Shown here one piece after another: positions 3,291 to 61,819 of a stretch of DNA of 64,000 nucleotides. Position numbers and translations under genes: made by a program. The DNA is taken from positions 151,318 through 215,317 of the forward strand of contig CAKSEL010000003.1 in NCBI GenBank assembly GCA_934446675.1, read 5' to 3'. The stretch comes from an uncultured Eubacteriales bacterium (lineage in GTDB: Bacteria; Bacillota; Clostridia; Oscillospirales; CAG-382). Every line of letters starts with the position of its first letter. Within the stretch, counting starts at the first letter, position 1. The notes below the pieces were generated by a model. It had not been told where the DNA came from, did no database searches, and saw only the letters and a program-made list of their open reading frames with translations.

Positions 3291-4430
3291 ATGAAAAAGA
3301 TCATATATGTGCTGACCGCAGCCGTTCTGATATGCACGGCGCTCTGTTTTGCGGCATTTGCCGAAGATTCGGACAATGCTGATATGACCGTAAGGTTCGA
3401 CTGTTCGGAAACGGACCCGGACGGCGTGTTTACTATGAAAATATCGTTTGAAAACGTCCGTTTTATGACCTATCAGTTCGCGGTAAGATACGATACCGAA
3501 GCTGTCGAGGCGTATAATGCCGAAAATAAAACGGCTGCGAAAGAATTTTCAGATTTCGCAAAGAGAATAAAGCATACCGGACTTAATTCGATAGGCGAGC
3601 TGCTCGACGCGGAAAACGGATTTTTCGACTTTACCGGCTTTGTGCTTGCAAATGCGTCAACCGATGAAACGTCGGGCTTTACAATGGACGGCTCGCAGGC
3701 TGTGACGGATAAAGATTTTGTCCTTTATGAAATGACATTCAGAAAAAAGTCGGATAAAGATCCCGGCTTTGAAATTGCCTTTGCGGACGGAAACGGCGTG
3801 CATTACGATATGTTCCCCGAAGGCGCCGCGATTTTCGGCGGTCCCGATAAACCGTATGCCGCAAAAGCCGTTTTTACATATGATAATAAGGAAAAGACGA
3901 CAGAGTTTGATTCCGTAAAATATTCGTCGGGCGCGGCTCCTACAAAATCGCAGAGACTTAAAAACACGCTTTATATGCAAAGCGAAAACTATGCATGTGC
4001 CGCAGACGGAGCGCTCCGCGTGATTGACGTGTCGGATAAGACCTTTGCTCCAGAATTGAAGGACGGCGCGCTTTATGTTCCGTTAAGATTCGTGTGCGAA
4101 TACTTCGGATTAAAGACCGAATGGGACGCCGTCAGGCGCTGCGCCGTTGTAAGCGGCGAAAACGGAAAGTTTGAAATATATCCCGACCGTGGCAAAGTGA
4201 TGTCCGGAACTCAGCAGCTCGATTCGGCAAAGCCGTATATCGGTAAAGACAGAATTTTCGTGGACTTTGATACTGCGGCAAAAATCGCAGATGTAAATAC
4301 GTATGCGGAAAATGCCGGCGAGATAGTATTCGCAAAAGGCGAAGAATGGAAACCGGAACGTTACGCGGAAAAACAGGCGCTTAACAATATGAAATTCGTG
4401 ATATCGCCTCTTATAAAGATATTCGCGTAA
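3291..4430 (+). CDS. Secreted protein: N-terminal cohesin-like module plus C-terminal copper-amine-oxidase-N-like (stalk) domain
   Basis: The track ORF 3267-4430 is trimmed to the ATG at 3291 (RBS GGGAGG; MKKIIYVLTAAVLICTALCFAAFA signal peptide). FTMKISFENVRFMTYQFAVRYDTEAVEAYN resembles the cohesin core. GALYVPLRFVCEYFGLKTEWD resembles the Cu_amine_oxidN1 repeat. Confidence 0.6.
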   Translation: MKKIIYVLTAAVLICTALCFAAFAEDSDNADMTVRFDCSETDPDGVFTMKISFENVRFMTYQFAVRYDTEAVEAYNAENKTAAKEFSDFAKRIKHTGLNSIGELLDAENGFFDFTGFVLANASTDETSGFTMDGSQAVTDKDFVLYEMTFRKKSDKDPGFEIAFADGNGVHYDMFPEGAAIFGGPDKPYAAKAVFTYDNKEKTTEFDSVKYSSGAAPTKSQRLKNTLYMQSENYACAADGALRVIDVSDKTFAPELKDGALYVPLRFVCEYFGLKTEWDAVRRCAVVSGENGKFEIYPDRGKVMSGTQQLDSAKPYIGKDRIFVDFDTAAKIADVNTYAENAGEIVFAKGEEWKPERYAEKQALNNMKFVISPLIKIFA

Positions 4431-55356: not shown

Positions 55357-56373
<1,017 letters not shown>

Positions 56374-56474
56374 AAACATCGTAAAACAGTTTATCAGCCG
56401 CCCGGAAGTAAATATATTTTTGGGCGGTTCTTTTTACACAATTATACCGCTTAATTTGAAAGGACATAAATATT

Positions 56475-58142
56475 ATGCGCAGCGATAACGTAAAAAAAGG
56501 CGCCGAAAGAGCGCCCAACAGAAGCTTATTCTATGCAATGGGCTATACCGAAGAAGAACTTGAACGTCCGCTTATCGGAGTAGTCAGCGCACACAGCGAG
56601 ATTGTTCCGGGACATATTCATCTCGATAAAATTGCCGAAGCTGTAAAGGCAGGCGTAAGAATGGCGGGCGGAACTCCCGTGCTTATACCGTCCATCGGCG
56701 TCTGCGACGGCATTGCAATGGGACACGTCGGCATGAAATACTCGCTTGCAAGCAGAGAGCTTATCGCGGACAGCGTTGAAACCATGACAATGGCTCATCA
56801 GCTCGACGGACTTGTGCTTGTGCCAAACTGCGACAAAATAGTGCCCGGCATGGTAATGGCTGCCGTAAGACTTGATATTCCGGCTGTCGTTTGCAGCGGC
56901 GGTCCCATGCTTCCCGGTACATATGACGGACAGGAGGTCAGCCTTTCAAAGCTGTTCGAGGCTGTCGGCGCATACAAGGCAGGCATCATAGATGAAAATA
57001 AGCTTCACGAATGTGAAACCGGAGCTTGTCCCGGCTGCGGAAGCTGCGCCGGAATGTATACCGCAAACAGCATGAACTGCCTGTGCGAGGCTATCGGTAT
57101 AGCTCTTCCCGGAAACGGAACCGTCGCAGCCGTAAGCAATAAGCGTATAATGCTTGCAAAGCACGCAGGTATGGCGATTATGGATATGGTAAACAAGGGC
57201 ATTACCGCGCGTCAGATAATTAATAAGAAGTCGCTGCTCAACGCGCTTGCCTGTGACATGGCGCTCGGCTGCAGCTCAAACAGCGTTCTTCATCTGCTTG
57301 CCATTGCAAATGAGGCAGGCGTCGACTTTGATCTTAAACTCTTTAACGAAACCAGCGAAAAGGTCCCGAATCTGTGCCATCTTGCACCTGCCGGTGCCAC
57401 ACATATAACAGATCTTGACGCGGCAGGCGGAATCCCTGCGGTTCAGGCAGAGCTTATAAAGGGCGGACTTATAGATCCGTCTGCTCTTACGGTTACGGGA
57501 AAGACGGTAGGCGAAAACGTAAAGGGCGCATATATAAAGAATACCGATAATATCCGTCCGCTTGACAATCCGTACAGCAAGACCGGAGGAATACAGATAC
57601 TCTGGGGAAATCTTGCGCCGGACGGCTGCGTTGTAAAGAGAAGCGCCGTTGCACCCGAAATGTTAAAGCATACCGGACGCGCACGCGTGTTCAACAGCGA
57701 GGACGAGGCAATAGACGCAATATATAACGGAAAGATAGTTGACGGCGACGTTGTCGTTATACGTTACGAAGGTCCTGTCGGAGGTCCCGGAATGAGAGAA
57801 ATGCTCAATCCCACAAGCGCGCTTGCAGGCATGAAACTTGACAAGACGGTAGCGCTCATCACCGACGGACGTTTTTCGGGAGCAAGCCGCGGCGCGTCAA
57901 TAGGTCATGTTTGTCCCGAAGCCGCAAACGGCGGTCCTATCGGTCTTGTAAAAGAGGGCGATATGATTGAGATTGACATTCCGAATGCGTCGATAAACGT
58001 TCTTGTTTCGGAAGATGAACTTGCAAAGAGAAAAGCGGAGTACGTAAAGCCCGAACCTAACATAAAGACAGGCTGGCTTGCGAGATATTCTAAGCTTGTA
58101 TCGGGTGCAGACCGCGGTGCGGTTATGAAAAATCAGTTCTGA
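56475..58142 (+). CDS. ilvD: Dihydroxy-acid dehydratase
   Basis: Motifs [34 protein letters not shown] and [13 protein letters not shown]. Confidence 0.95.
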
Positions 58143-58167
58143 GAATAAATAACGGGAGTTTTGCACC

Positions 58168-58536
58168 ATGGCTTATGTGTATATGCTGCTTTGCGAAGGT
58201 AATACGCTGTATACCGGCATTGCGGCTGATGTAAAAAAGCGTATTTCCGCGCATATAAACAGGTCGGGCGCAAAATATACCAAAAGCCACGCCGCACTTA
58301 GGCTTGAGGCGCTGTGGGAAACGCAGAATCTCGGCGGTGCGGCAAAGCTCGAGTACAGAATAAAGCGCCTTGATAAGCAAAAAAAGCTTGAGCTTGTAAA
58401 ATCGCCGCAATCGGTGAGCCAATTGTTTCCGGAGCTTAGCGAAACAGGCTTTGAGGCAAAAGAATCTTTTGAAATAACCGAAATTAACCGCGCATTGTTT
58501 TGCGGAGAAAGCGAGAGACATAATGGCAAAGCTTGA
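58168..58536 (+). CDS. GIY-YIG nuclease family protein (UPF0213/YhbQ-like)
   Basis: The N-terminus YVYMLLCEGNTLYTGIAADVKKRISAHIN..GAKYTK..LEYRIKRL matches the GIY-YIG core. Confidence 0.75.
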   Translation: MAYVYMLLCEGNTLYTGIAADVKKRISAHINRSGAKYTKSHAALRLEALWETQNLGGAAKLEYRIKRLDKQKKLELVKSPQSVSQLFPELSETGFEAKESFEITEINRALFCGESERHNGKA

Positions 58537-58846
58537 AACGACAATAAACGGCAGTTTCAGTGAGATACTGCGTAAAATAGAAAACGGAATCCTCGGCGGC
58601 AGCATTTCGGCAAGCCTTGAAGATTCCAGCGATTTTTATATTGACGGCGCAAGGTGCAGCGTCAGGGTATTTGAGCGGTACAGCTATCTCGGAAAGAACC
58701 GCGTCAGCATGAATGTAACGCTTTTCGGAAACGACGGAAAGGTGTATCTTTCCGCAATAACCTCCGGCGGCAGCCAAGCCGTGTTTTTCAAGATCAATAC
58801 CTTCGGCGAAGAGGCGTTTCTCGATAAGCTTCGGGAAATTCTGTGA
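58523..58846 (+). CDS. Hypothetical 107-aa protein, translationally coupled to the GIY-YIG gene
   Basis: The ATG at 58523 overlaps the upstream gene by 14 nt. No motif recognised. Confidence 0.5.
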   Translation: MAKLETTINGSFSEILRKIENGILGGSISASLEDSSDFYIDGARCSVRVFERYSYLGKNRVSMNVTLFGNDGKVYLSAITSGGSQAVFFKINTFGEEAFLDKLREIL

Positions 58847-58865
58847 CGGCGCGCCGCAAGAGCAT

Positions 58866-58894
58866 TTGACAAATATATAAACATAGTATATAAT
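58866..58894 (+). promoter_or_regulatory. Consensus sigmaA promoter driving the small hydrophobic ORF
   Basis: TTGACA (58866-58871), 17 nt, TATAAT (58889-58894). The first 16 nt are identical to the rplJ promoter at 59221-59236. Confidence 0.65.
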
Positions 58895-58985
58895 TAACCC
58901 TGCCGGTGTAAAAATCGGCAGGGCAAGTTCTCTTAACGGTGGATATCACCGGCGGTTGTGCCATTCCCGAAAGGGGGTGGTTGTT

Positions 58986-59057
58986 ATGAACAAATACATA
59001 GGATTTGTTTTCTTTGTACTTATCATAGCGATAGCTTTTTCAATAAAAGCAAACTAA
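58986..59057 (+). CDS. Candidate type I toxin: 23-aa hydrophobic peptide
   Basis: RBS AAGGGGGTGG (58971-58980). The peptide is MNKYIGFVFFVLIIAIAFSIKAN. The structured 5' UTR has hairpins at 58897-58922 and 58936-58952, and CCCGAAAGGG overlaps the SD. Confidence 0.45.
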   Translation: MNKYIGFVFFVLIIAIAFSIKAN

Positions 59058-59169
59058 CCGCCCCACTCGTCAAAATGTAGCGGTTAGTTTAAACTTAAAC
59101 ATTTTGGCATAACCGTTTGAGGTCTTGCCTTTGTACTTACATTATATGCCGCGCACACGGTTTTGTCAA
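59042..59169 (-). ncRNA. Candidate antisense (antitoxin) sRNA with its promoter
   Basis: Minus-strand TTGACA (59164-59169), 17 nt, TATAAT (59141-59146). The predicted ~90-nt transcript runs from about 59134 through the hairpin CTAACCGC..GCGGTTAG (59054-59087) to a T-rich tract, overlapping the 3' end of the small ORF. Confidence 0.45.
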
Positions 59170-59220
59170 CAGCTTTTTATAAAAACTTTTATGCCGGCAA
59201 AAAAATATTGATAAAACCAC

Positions 59221-59410
59221 TTGACAAATATATAAAACTGTGGTATCATACTCACGTTGACCTGAGAAAACAGGCAGTGCAATGCACTCTAACGGTTAAT
59301 ACCGCCTGTCGAGGAAGATGTAATTTAAAGAATATCGTAAAATATTCTCCCGTACATTGTCCTTTTTCTATGGTCGAAAAAAGGGCATTTTTTATTTGGG
59401 AGGTGAACAT
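59221..59410 (+). promoter_or_regulatory. rplJ promoter and ~160-nt structured leader (position of the ribosomal protein L10 leader)
   Basis: TTGACA (59221-59226), 17 nt, TATCAT (59244-59249), then a long 5' UTR before rplJ. The L10-leader consensus was not verified by eye. Confidence 0.5.
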
Positions 59411-59923
59411 ATGCCAAGCGCAAAGATTCTTGAACAGAAGCAGAAAATGGTCGCAGAACTCGCAGAAAAGATGAAGAACGCCAAGAGCGGCGTTATCGTT
59501 GACTACTGCGGAATCACTGTTGACAAGGACACAGCACTCAGAGCTGAGCTCCGCAAGGCAGGCGTTGATTACACCGTAATCAAGAACACCTACATCAAGA
59601 AGGCGGCAGATATCGCAGGTATAAGCGGTTTCGAGCCTTTCCTTGAAGGTATGACTGCTTTCGCACTCAGCAACGAAGATCCGCTCGCTCCTGCAAAGAT
59701 CCTCTGCAAATTCGCTGAGGATAACGAGACCTTCAAAGTAAAGGTCGGTATCATGGACGGCGCGATCATGGACGCTAAAGAGGTTGAAGCTCTTTCCAAG
59801 ATTCCTTCAAAGGAAGTTCTTATCGGAAAGGTACTCGGCAGCATTCAGGGTCCTCTGTACGGTCTTGCTTACGTACTTCAGGCAAAGATCGACAAGGAAG
59901 GCGGCGTTCCTGCCGCAGAATAA
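59411..59923 (+). CDS. rplJ: 50S ribosomal protein L10
   Basis: The track ORF 59357-59923 is trimmed to the ATG at 59411 (RBS GGGAGGTG). N-terminus MPSAKILEQKQKMVAELAEKMKNAKSGVIVDYCGITV. Confidence 0.95.
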   Translation: MPSAKILEQKQKMVAELAEKMKNAKSGVIVDYCGITVDKDTALRAELRKAGVDYTVIKNTYIKKAADIAGISGFEPFLEGMTAFALSNEDPLAPAKILCKFAEDNETFKVKVGIMDGAIMDAKEVEALSKIPSKEVLIGKVLGSIQGPLYGLAYVLQAKIDKEGGVPAAE

Positions 59924-60011
59924 GCTTTGCACGGGCGGCTTAGCGTGAATATACGCACTTTAAAAGTCCCGGCTGAAAAAATAATTTTTGAAAAAACGGA
60001 GGTAATTTAAA

Positions 60012-60547: not shown

Positions 60548-60576
60548 TTGACATAAAATGCAACCCGTAGTATAAT
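60548..60576 (+). promoter_or_regulatory. Consensus sigmaA promoter of the COG0523 pair
   Basis: TTGACA (60548-60553), 17 nt, TATAAT (60571-60576). No convincing Zur-type palindrome was recognised nearby. Confidence 0.6.
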
Positions 60577-60619
60577 GCTATTCAGGGAAATTATTTTTAT
60601 TAAACGGAGATGTTTAAAC

Positions 60620-61819
60620 ATGACTACCATTGATATTTTTTCCGGATTTCTCGGTGCCGGAAAGACTACGCTTATCAAAAAGCTCATTAAAGAAGGATAT
60701 AAAAACCAAAAGCTCGTGCTTATAGAAAACGAGTTCGGCGAAATAGGCATTGACGGCGGATTTTTAAAGGATTCCGGCGTGCAGATAAACGAAATGAATT
60801 CAGGCTGTATCTGCTGCAGCCTTGTCGGCGACTTTACAAAGGCGCTCAAACAGGTTATCGACGAATATAAGCCGGACAGAATTCTTATTGAGCCGTCGGG
60901 TGTAGGCAAGCTCAGCGACGTTATAAGAGCGGTTCGCGACGCGGGCGCTTCGGGTGCCGTTCTCGGTTCGTTCACCACGGTTGCCGACGTTACAAAGTGC
61001 AAGATGTATATTAAGAACTTCGGCGAGTTCTATAACGATCAGGTTGAAAATGCCTGCACGATTATTCTCAGCCGTACCGATAACGTTCCGCAGTATAAGA
61101 TCGACGCCGCAGTTGCGCTTCTTCGCGAGCATAACAAGGACGCCGTTATAATCACAACTCCCTGGGACGAGCTTTCCGGCGAGCAGATAGTTTCAGCCAT
61201 GGAAAACAGAAGCACACTCGAAAAAGAGCTTGAACGCCTTGAACACGAGGAGCATGAACATCATCACCATGATGAAGATGAGGACGAACATGAGCACCAT
61301 CACCACCACGATCATGATGACGATGATGACGATGACGAGTGCTGCTGCGGACATCACCACCATGACGGCGATGATGAGCATGAACACGAGCATGAACATC
61401 ATCATGACCACGACCACGATCACGAGTGCTGCCACCATGACCACGACGAAGATGAGGATGAACACGAACATCATCATCACGACCATGACCATGACGGAGA
61501 ATGCTGCCACGGACACCATCATCATCACCACGCTGACGAGGTGTTTACGAGCTGGGGCGTTGAAACAACGCATAAATTCACGCCCGAACAGATACTTGAC
61601 TGCTTAAAGGCTCTTGAGAATGATGACGAATACGGCACGATACTCAGAGCAAAGGGTATTGTCGAAAACGCAAACGGCGGCTGGATACACTACGATTATG
61701 TTCCGGGCTGTCCCGACGTAAGAAGCGGAAGCGCCGATATTACCGGAAGAATCTGCGTTATCGGCTCTAAGATTGACGAAAATAAGCTTGCCGCACTTTT
61801 CGGAGTCGCAGCAAAGTAA
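60620..61819 (+). CDS. COG0523 (CobW/YciC/ZigA-type) metallochaperone GTPase with very long His/Asp/Glu/Cys-rich insert
   Basis: The track ORF 60575-61819 is trimmed to the ATG at 60620. Walker A GFLGAGKTT, CxCC motif GCICCS, insert at about 61241-61536, and a CobW_C-like end (ILRAKGIVEN..GWIHYDYV). Confidence 0.85.
   Translation: MTTIDIFSGFLGAGKTTLIKKLIKEGYKNQKLVLIENEFGEIGIDGGFLKDSGVQINEMNSGCICCSLVGDFTKALKQVIDEYKPDRILIEPSGVGKLSDVIRAVRDAGASGAVLGSFTTVADVTKCKMYIKNFGEFYNDQVENACTIILSRTDNVPQYKIDAAVALLREHNKDAVIITTPWDELSGEQIVSAMENRSTLEKELERLEHEEHEHHHHDEDEDEHEHHHHHDHDDDDDDDECCCGHHHHDGDDEHEHEHEHHHDHDHDHECCHHDHDEDEDEHEHHHHDHDHDGECCHGHHHHHHADEVFTSWGVETTHKFTPEQILDCLKALENDDEYGTILRAKGIVENANGGWIHYDYVPGCPDVRSGSADITGRICVIGSKIDENKLAALFGVAAK

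Follow-up and report, generated by a model that had tools for sequence, protein, structure and literature searches.

A phage-related cassette with type I toxin-antitoxin-like architecture beside rplJ in an uncultured Eubacteriales bacterium

In the stretch of DNA analysed here, a window of 64,000 nucleotides (nt) from an uncultured Eubacteriales bacterium (contig CAKSEL010000003.1), a short cassette lies between a gene of the DUF6054 family and rplJ, the gene of ribosomal protein L10. The cassette carries two convergent promoters, an open reading frame (ORF) for a small hydrophobic peptide, a Shine-Dalgarno sequence (SD) predicted to be paired within the 5' untranslated region (5'UTR), and a terminator hairpin that both strands would share (Table 1). 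We shall argue that it is a candidate type I toxin-antitoxin-like module, whose relatives are carried by a few temperate phages of gut and rumen. Contigs other than the window are designated below by L numbers.

Table 1. Features of the cassette and of the adjoining rplJ region, with positions in the window
Feature	Positions	Strand	Remarks
Inserted cassette, 347 bp	58854-59200		Absent from the empty site of a sister species; homologous over its length to phage morons
Left 16-mer TTGACAAATATATAAA	58866-58881	+	-35 and half of the P1 spacer; 12 nt inside the insertion
P1, predicted promoter of the peptide mRNA	58866-58894	+	TTGACA-17-TATAAT, 12/12 consensus match
mRNA 5'-terminal hairpin (GCCGGU / ...UCGGC)	58902-58919	+	Family consensus fold, two compensatory pairs
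5'UTR element GGGCAAG...CUCUUAACGG-hairpin-CGGUUGUGCC	58921-58962	+	Paralogue of the 5' hairpin of the antisense RNA
Anti-SD/SD hairpin CCAUUCCC-GAAA-GGGGGUGG	58961-58980	+	8 bp, core CCCGAAAGGG; SD at 58973-58980
Peptide ORF, 23 codons	58986-59057	+	One hydrophobic helix, MxKYI N-terminus, K/R-rich C-terminus; encodes MNKYIGFVFFVLIIAIAFSIKAN
Predicted antisense RNA, ~95 nt	59040-59134	-	Defined by promoter and terminator; fold z-score -4.6
Bidirectional terminator hairpin, including the stop codon	59051-59090	both	CTAACCGC/GCGGTTAG extended to 11 bp, 59051-59061 with 59080-59090
Antisense 5' hairpin GGCAAGACC-UCAAAC-GGUUAUGCC	59106-59129	-	Near-invariant
Antisense promoter	59141-59169	-	TTGACA 59169-59164, TATAAT 59146-59141, 12/12 consensus match
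P2, native rplJ promoter (59221-59249), with UP-like stretch	59201-59249	+	11/12 consensus match, with upstream TG; holds the right 16-mer
Right 16-mer TTGACAAATATATAAA	59221-59236	+	21 nt outside the insertion, behind the UP-like stretch
L10 leader of rplJ (context, outside the cassette)	59243-59402	+	RF00557, 42 bits; clade-specific covariance model, 67 bits

Promoters, peptide and predicted RNAs

An earlier note on this DNA had described P1 and the antisense promoter as perfect and convergent, and both indeed match the consensus at every hexamer position. Together they are two of the six perfect TTGACA-N17-TATAAT sites in the window, and since none at all appeared in 100 shuffles, the convergent pair is not a product of chance. 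Transcription from P1 is predicted to start at about 58901-58902. The P1 hexamers are unchanged in all chromosomal alleles and the 3' half of the spacer is variable. For the antisense promoter 10 family sequences were compared; the hexamers of 9 match the consensus perfectly, the only exception being a mutated -10 box (CATAAT) in the allele of L001 and L057, and the 17-nt spacers between the hexamers are unrelated (29-41% identity). Compared with the -35 box of the antisense promoter, those of the phage toxin promoters discussed below (TTGCAA, TTGAAA and TTGAAT) are weaker. Downstream of the antisense promoter the minus strand holds only short ORFs, and throughout the family the predicted antisense transcript reaches the shared terminator.

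The peptide frame is open in six distinct chromosomal alleles, over 22-23 codons. Besides the window allele these encode MNKYIRFFIFVIFMAIAFSIKVK (L048), MNKYIRFLIFAFVIAIAFTMKVK (L045), MEKYIRVCIFAFVIAIAFTVKVK (L042, with L039 the same minus one codon) and MEKYIRVCIFAFFLILAFTLKVK (L038 and L041). Across the six, 27 of 69 ORF sites are variable, 13, 4 and 10 of them at the first, second and third codon positions, and there is neither a stop nor an indel at nucleotide divergences of 15-39%. The second codon position, which sets hydrophobicity, is thus spared and the peptide therefore remains hydrophobic: mean Kyte-Doolittle hydropathy over residues 5-20 is 2.5-3.0 in peptides of 22-24 amino acids (aa), and in most alleles the C-terminus reads K-x-K/R. 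Between the window and L048, the ORF and the terminator loop differ by 14-15%, as against 2-6% for the flanking genes and about 7% for another spacer. Gene callers called no gene at the ORF in any contig. Judging from the open frame in diverged alleles and from the spared second position, the 23-codon ORF is a real coding sequence, and the earlier reading of it as encoding a hydrophobic peptide holds. Type I toxins are small (<60 aa) and hydrophobic, with a potential transmembrane helix and a charged C-terminus, and an antisense RNA pairs with their mRNA (PMC6563280); the peptides agree with this description in size, hydrophobicity, potential transmembrane helix and charged C-terminal residues.

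A third frame that overlaps the ORF (58958-59080, plus strand), and that is entered by a frameshifted allele described below, likewise lacks stops in each of the six alleles, probably as a side effect of the T-rich second codon positions.

The predicted mRNA from P1 is about 195 nt long, and its fold (58902-59100) has a z-score of -5.7 against shuffles. The 8-bp hairpin around the SD bears out the earlier proposal that the SD is partly occluded in a structured 5'UTR. In the chromosomal alleles it is paired in 100% of cells, with five of its eight pairs variable and one of them changed on both sides; family-wide the anti-SD helix (GCCAYY / GGUGGU) is likewise 100% paired, even where the loop carries a 22-nt insertion, and has one compensatory pair. 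The hairpin at the stop codon, which the note had taken to end the antisense RNA, also stands: it occurs in every family member with stems that differ and arms that match (CUAACCGC, AUAACCGC, GUAACCG, GAUAGC, GAGAUAGCCC and AAUAACGC), and its outermost variable pair in the chromosomal alleles is C-G, A-U or G-C. The U-tract that follows it is good on the minus strand. The predicted antisense RNA would overlap the mRNA by about 55 nt, at its 3' end and over approximately the last six codons.

The insertion beside rplJ and its phage relatives

We reached the empty site through a DUF6054 protein 90% identical to that of the window. It led to three contigs of a sister species (L059-L061) with the gene order ilvC-ilvD-GIY-YIG-DUF6054-rplJ and a spacer of only 226 nt before rplJ. 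By blastn, positions 1-3331 of L059 align with window positions 55524-58853 at 89.4% identity and positions 3341-4096 with 59201-59956 at 96.6% identity, so that L059 has 9 nt where the window has 58854-59200. The cassette is an insertion relative to the sister species. The earlier note had supposed an insertion too, but placed it in the rplJ promoter region; its actual position is immediately before that promoter and not inside it.

Degenerate patterns built on the SD/start region and on the antisense hairpin brought up homologues of the cassette in eight IMG/VR contigs. Lineage A (L070-L072) encodes the peptide MRKYILRIFFLILI(L/M)LIAFTIKVK, lineage B encodes MKKYIIRILILVIVFLLTLTKKVR (L068/L069) or MKNYIIRILILIFVFLITLAKKVR (L073/L075), and lineage C (L074) encodes MDNEFIISFMIILLLLVVSIKK; the phage orthologues, MRKYILRIFFLILILLIAFTIKVK among them, are 22-24 aa long. 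Homology between the window and the phages begins upstream of the -35 box, runs through the complete unit and stops at 59199/59200, precisely where the chromosomal insertion has its right border. Against L076 the cassette gives 79.5% identity over 220 nt (E = 4e-45).

The neighbours of the module in L070, typed with PHROGs, are the C-terminus of a tape-measure protein, tail proteins, a holin, an amidase and serine integrases, and L070 is therefore a temperate tailed phage. In the phages the cassette follows the tape-measure stop codon and precedes the SD of the tail gene downstream. A search with the downstream tail protein gave about 40 related phages, in about 35 of which the tape-measure stop is followed by the next gene after 9-14 nt (or 64 nt), and only the cassette carriers have 370-397 nt there. 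No target duplication is evident at the phage insertion sites. The cassette thus has the character of a moron, an autonomous unit between conserved phage genes that is present in some relatives and absent from others, and on the strength of this homology it is a member of a phage-borne family, homologous to a moron of a few temperate phages. By blastn the cassette had no match among GenBank phages or PLSDB plasmids. In L074 (1263-4447) the module stands beside two large serine recombinase genes and the gene of a 669-aa secreted protein, not in a tail cluster. Two further contigs (L153 and L154) were discarded as chance matches to the hairpin pattern in GC-rich coding DNA.

The phage modules have a further symmetry. 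Their left arm (toxin promoter and 5'UTR) is similar to the reverse complement of their right arm (antisense promoter and first part of the antisense RNA), with a score that none of 300 shuffles reaches. The arms thus form an inverted duplication, and the antisense hairpin is therefore a paralogue of the 5'UTR element GGYAAGA...CGGUURUGCC. This element can fold into a helix, 97.9% paired, whose overlap with the anti-SD strand is three bases. Most chromosomal alleles, phage lineage A and the L068/L069 branch of lineage B have the antisense 5' hairpin in identical form; the L048- and L001-type chromosomal alleles, L073/L075 and L074 depart from it at one or two positions. The loop of this hairpin is CTCAAACGGTTA, which we had also tried on the minus strand as an L10-like motif and found at chance level (6 matches in the window against 4.8 expected). 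An 11-nt direct repeat, CTTTGTACTTA (at 59012 and 59129), was dropped since it is not conserved among the alleles.

How, then, did two identical 16-mers come to lie 355 nt apart at this locus? The earlier note had regarded them as the borders of the cassette and as the trace of a duplicated target. Their identity is real, within a 24-nt repeat of 88% identity, and together with the presence/absence polymorphism it could suggest a mobile element that inserted into the rplJ promoter with a 16-bp target duplication. The real borders are at 58854 and 59200, however, so that one 16-mer lies inside the insertion and the other outside. The UP-like stretch AAAAATATTGATAAAACC, an A-rich sequence upstream of the -35 box that the empty site shares, accompanies only the right copy. 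The note had also expected an empty site with a single 16-mer; a cassette-free spacer does exist, but in place of the exact 16-mer it has TTGACAAACGCAAAAA, which matches at 12 of 16 positions and belongs to the rplJ promoter TTGACAAACGCAAAAAGATGTGGTAATAT of the empty site. The signature of insertion sequences (IS) and miniature inverted-repeat transposable elements (MITEs), with direct repeats exactly at the borders and a single copy in the empty site, was not found here. With one copy inside, one outside, and a 12/16 match at the empty site, target-site duplication is not supported; the empty site and the phage insertion sites free of duplication in fact rule it out, P1 is homologous to phage toxin promoters, and we regard a mobile element of this kind as barely credible.

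Two related schemes were also discarded. A tandem duplication of the 355-nt unit would leave similarity in register over the remaining 257 nt, and there is none (13 against 12.4 ± 2.4). Nor do MITE-like terminal inverted repeats describe the cassette: its inverted arms are subterminal and made up of the two promoters with the first transcribed elements, and no target-site duplication goes with them.

The carrier P2 and the P2 of the empty site (L059 3361-3389) differ at 9 of 29 positions, and 4 of these 9 differences make P2 identical to P1; in the UP-like stretch and in the 160-nt leader, the two lineages hardly differ. Because P1 is identical to the L069 phage toxin promoter at 22 of 29 positions, we take P1 to have come in with the cassette. 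The 16-nt identity between P1 and P2 is most likely the result of a short-tract conversion between similar adjacent promoters, most simply from P1 to P2.

One could also suppose that P1 is simply a tandem rplJ promoter, whose read-through adds to or regulates rplJ-rplL, the ORF and the antisense promoter being incidental. The weak plus-strand U-tract of the terminator and the 16 nt common to P1 and P2 would suit this idea, as would the resemblance, in register, of the sequence after the left 16-mer to the start of the L10 leader, which was matched in 0 of 2000 and 2 of 1000 shuffles. Yet the cassette 5'UTR fails the models of the L10 leader, whose mark is a three-way junction that binds L10(L12)4: in the Rfam search RF00557 matches only at the leader itself, and the clade-specific covariance model gives 2 bits at 58934-58951 and nothing in the phage modules. 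The 5'UTR is moreover homologous over its full length to phage 5'UTRs, and, the significant similarity in register apart, we dropped it both as a relic and as a working copy of the leader. In phages this cassette has no rplJ in its neighbourhood, the ORF is under coding constraint, and P2 alone suffices in the sister species and in some 30 relatives. A tandem-promoter role is thus very improbable.

The L10 leader of the window falls just short of the Rfam gathering score of 44, so that a search with default settings overlooks it; indeed, over the 64,000 nt not one Rfam family attains its gathering score. In related species (loci L002-L033) the leader has one of two 5' domains, a short three-way junction or much longer hairpins. 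On the other side of the cassette, the GIY-YIG gene (58168-58536) overlaps the DUF6054 gene (58523-58846) by 14 nt, and its small protein evolves fast, with 72% aa identity to the sister species against 98.9% for ilvD and 98.8% for L10. Further downstream lies a CobW/G3E-type GTPase gene (60575-61819), directly preceded by another perfect TTGACA-17-TATAAT site at 60548-60576. The GTPase has a His/Asp/Glu/Cys-rich insert of imperfect tandem repeats (61253-61510), and its called length varies by strain (346, 393 or 399 aa).

Chromosomal alleles and proposed function

The window belongs to an uncultured Clostridiales/Oscillospiraceae lineage of the gut. Among 36 related loci from species-representative genomes, only L001 (UMGS1387), whose L10 protein is 98% identical to that of the window, has the cassette; in the related loci rplJ-rplL is a stand-alone operon with differing upstream neighbours. 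Exact-protein look-ups and one metagenome pattern scan added about 20 contigs of the same locus. The chromosomal cassette is thus confined to one species and one locus, where it shows signs of decay. An allele with an additional C has a frameshifted ORF with a 44-aa non-hydrophobic product, and occurs in four independent contigs (L001, L050, L057 and L058). In L001 and L057 the frameshift goes together with the CATAAT antisense -10 box and with a terminator mismatch, which is the pattern expected once a toxin has been inactivated. A second group of alleles (L038 3520-3610, L039, L041 and L042) keeps an intact ORF and a canonical GGAGG SD, with a terminator 3' arm and an antisense hairpin that have diverged; all four contigs stop at the diverged 3' arm.

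The L058 allele (242-450) is a recombinant of an L001-type frameshifted ORF and an L048-type terminator 3' arm, with a broken outer stem pair and an extra G in the SD run. Assemblies often break inside the cassette (L040, L043, L044, L046 and L051-L056), where contigs end at 58975 or begin at 59103-59121, and this fits a coexistence of several diverged ORF and terminator alleles in one sample.

Could the chromosomal copy be a neutral, decaying relic, with a module that works in phages only and has no present function beside rplJ? The restriction to a single locus, the frameshift allele with its accompanying mutations and the degenerate 3' arm of the L038-type alleles all speak for it. Against it, the open alleles spare the second codon position and are free of stops at considerable divergence, there are compensatory changes within the chromosomal lineage itself, in the SD hairpin and in the outermost terminator pair, and promoter hexamers are invariant where spacers vary. 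We therefore consider a mere relic unlikely.

Of more weight is the possibility that the unit is a non-toxic phage moron, its peptide an accessory membrane factor, for instance in superinfection exclusion or host modulation, and the antisense RNA a means of tuning its level. Morons with membrane exclusion proteins near tail genes are familiar, HK97 gp15 being an example. The cassette is an autonomous unit beside the tape-measure gene of temperate phages, missing in most of their relatives; its peptide matches no toxin family; and the L038-type alleles keep the ORF although the antisense arm has diverged. However, a double block on expression, through a sequestered SD and through an antisense promoter that in phages is the stronger one, is typical of harmful products, peptides of 22-24 aa are far below the size of known exclusion proteins, and loss-of-function alleles have spread in the chromosome. 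We consider this reading possible, if doubtful.

Our analysis favours, with moderate confidence, a candidate type I toxin-antitoxin-like module of a new family, of which the window holds a chromosomal copy of phage origin. Of the readings considered this one is the best supported. Several observations nonetheless weigh against it. The peptides have no toxin-family or other relevant match in Pfam, NCBIfam or PHROGs, their hydrophobic stretch is short (about 16-17 residues), and the family is rare, with one bacterial species and eight viral contigs. The frameshift alleles imply that the peptide is dispensable, which fits a non-toxic accessory peptide too, and an intact ORF beside a diverged terminator 3' arm and antisense hairpin, as in the L038-type alleles, is odd for a toxin. 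Since the plus-strand U-tract is weak, the end of the mRNA is uncertain. Outside the overlap in cis, mRNA and antisense RNA are no more complementary than expected (best duplex -21.2 kcal/mol, shuffles -20.3 ± 3.1), and pairing in trans between the 5' parts of the two RNAs, not above shuffles, was rejected. Finally, apart from the L10 leader the Rfam matches are at chance level, among them those to the models of the known pairs BsrG/SR4 and ShoB/OhsC (RF01412, RF02495; E-values 0.8-5.8), BsrG with 14.6 bits for a cut-off of 55 and ohsC with 19.1 bits for a cut-off of 50 (E = 5.8).

How would such a module work? For the toxin-antitoxin-like reading we envisage the following. The P1 mRNA would be made translationally closed, with a protective 5' hairpin and the SD locked in the anti-SD hairpin, and the peptide, if made, would damage the membrane. 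The antisense RNA, from an equal or stronger promoter, would be abundant and less protected, with an exposed A-rich 5' tail. It would base-pair with the mRNA over the last six codons and through the terminator common to both RNAs, and might also pair with the 5'UTR element that it resembles; this pairing would hold the SD closed, trigger mRNA cleavage, or both. In prophages the module may act in maintenance or in abortive defence, and the chromosomal cassette would be a stranded copy, already broken by frameshift in some strains.

Type I systems are hard to find, because their peptides fall below gene-caller length and their RNAs are not conserved between families. The present case yields a new candidate family, found in uncultured Clostridia of gut and rumen and in temperate phages of these bacteria, whose parts are clear and testable. 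Both the phages and the chromosome offer natural empty sites, and there are natural knock-out alleles. The locus also presents a phage moron captured beside a ribosomal-protein promoter, with which it has apparently exchanged promoter sequence.

Comparison with known systems

Among known type I systems of comparable peptide size are Ibs/Sib and ShoB/OhsC of E. coli, which likewise have a very short (18-26 aa) hydrophobic toxin and an intergenic insertion. However, Sib is fully overlapping and OhsC divergent, and these systems are proteobacterial. CD0977.1-RCd11 of Clostridioides difficile and BsrG/SR4 and TxpA/RatA of B. subtilis, from prophages of Firmicutes, have a hydrophobic, lysine-ended toxin and a convergent, 3'-overlapping antisense RNA (PMC6563280, PMC7699646), as predicted for the cassette. 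Their toxins, however, are of 28-60 aa and have no sequence similarity to the cassette peptide. Their antisense overlaps, of 75-120 nt, are longer than the one predicted for the cassette.

The cassette resembles other phage morons in having its own promoter and terminator, in its place between the tape-measure stop and the next SD and in being missing from most relatives. It is unlike them in its two convergent promoters and predicted antisense RNA, and in that one copy has landed in a bacterial core region.

The likeness is closest in structure to par (Fst/RNA II) of the Enterococcus plasmid pAD1 and its chromosomal homologues, found on mobile elements and in core genomes (PMC7472228). In par, convergent promoters face a shared bidirectional terminator, a stem-loop sequesters the SD, and the 5' end of the toxin mRNA is protected (PMC7472228). 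The cassette sequence has the convergent promoters, a bidirectional intrinsic terminator with complementary stem-loops, the SD-sequestering 5' stem-loop and a predicted protective 5' hairpin, and it shares with par a small one-helix peptide with a charged C-terminus and an occurrence in both mobile and core-genome copies. The peptide itself is unlike Fst: it is of 22-24 aa and has no Pfam match, and no allele has the Fst motif PXXXG or, for that matter, any proline. The peptide thus matches no known toxin family, and we would regard the system as a new member, not yet classified, of the type I-like architecture.

In par, moreover, complementarity at the 5' side is provided by the direct repeats DRa and DRb. 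The cassette has no second complementarity of this type over the translation start; it has the inverted duplication instead, and the antisense RNA therefore resembles the toxin 5'UTR rather than its complement. This inverted duplication is a new feature relative to par. We may speculate, though we would call it rather improbable, that the antisense RNA acts beyond its cis overlap as an inverted-duplicate copy of the toxin 5'UTR switch, whose near-invariant GGCAAGACC...GGUUAUGCC hairpin works by mimicry, as a competitor of the 5'UTR either for the strand by which the SD would otherwise be freed or for an RNA-binding factor used by both. Taken jointly with this idea, and just as tentatively, the cassette might move without a transposase of its own, between tail modules, recombinase islands and core promoters. 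If functional mimicry between antisense RNA and 5'UTR were true, it would add a novel mode of action to those of RNA antitoxins.

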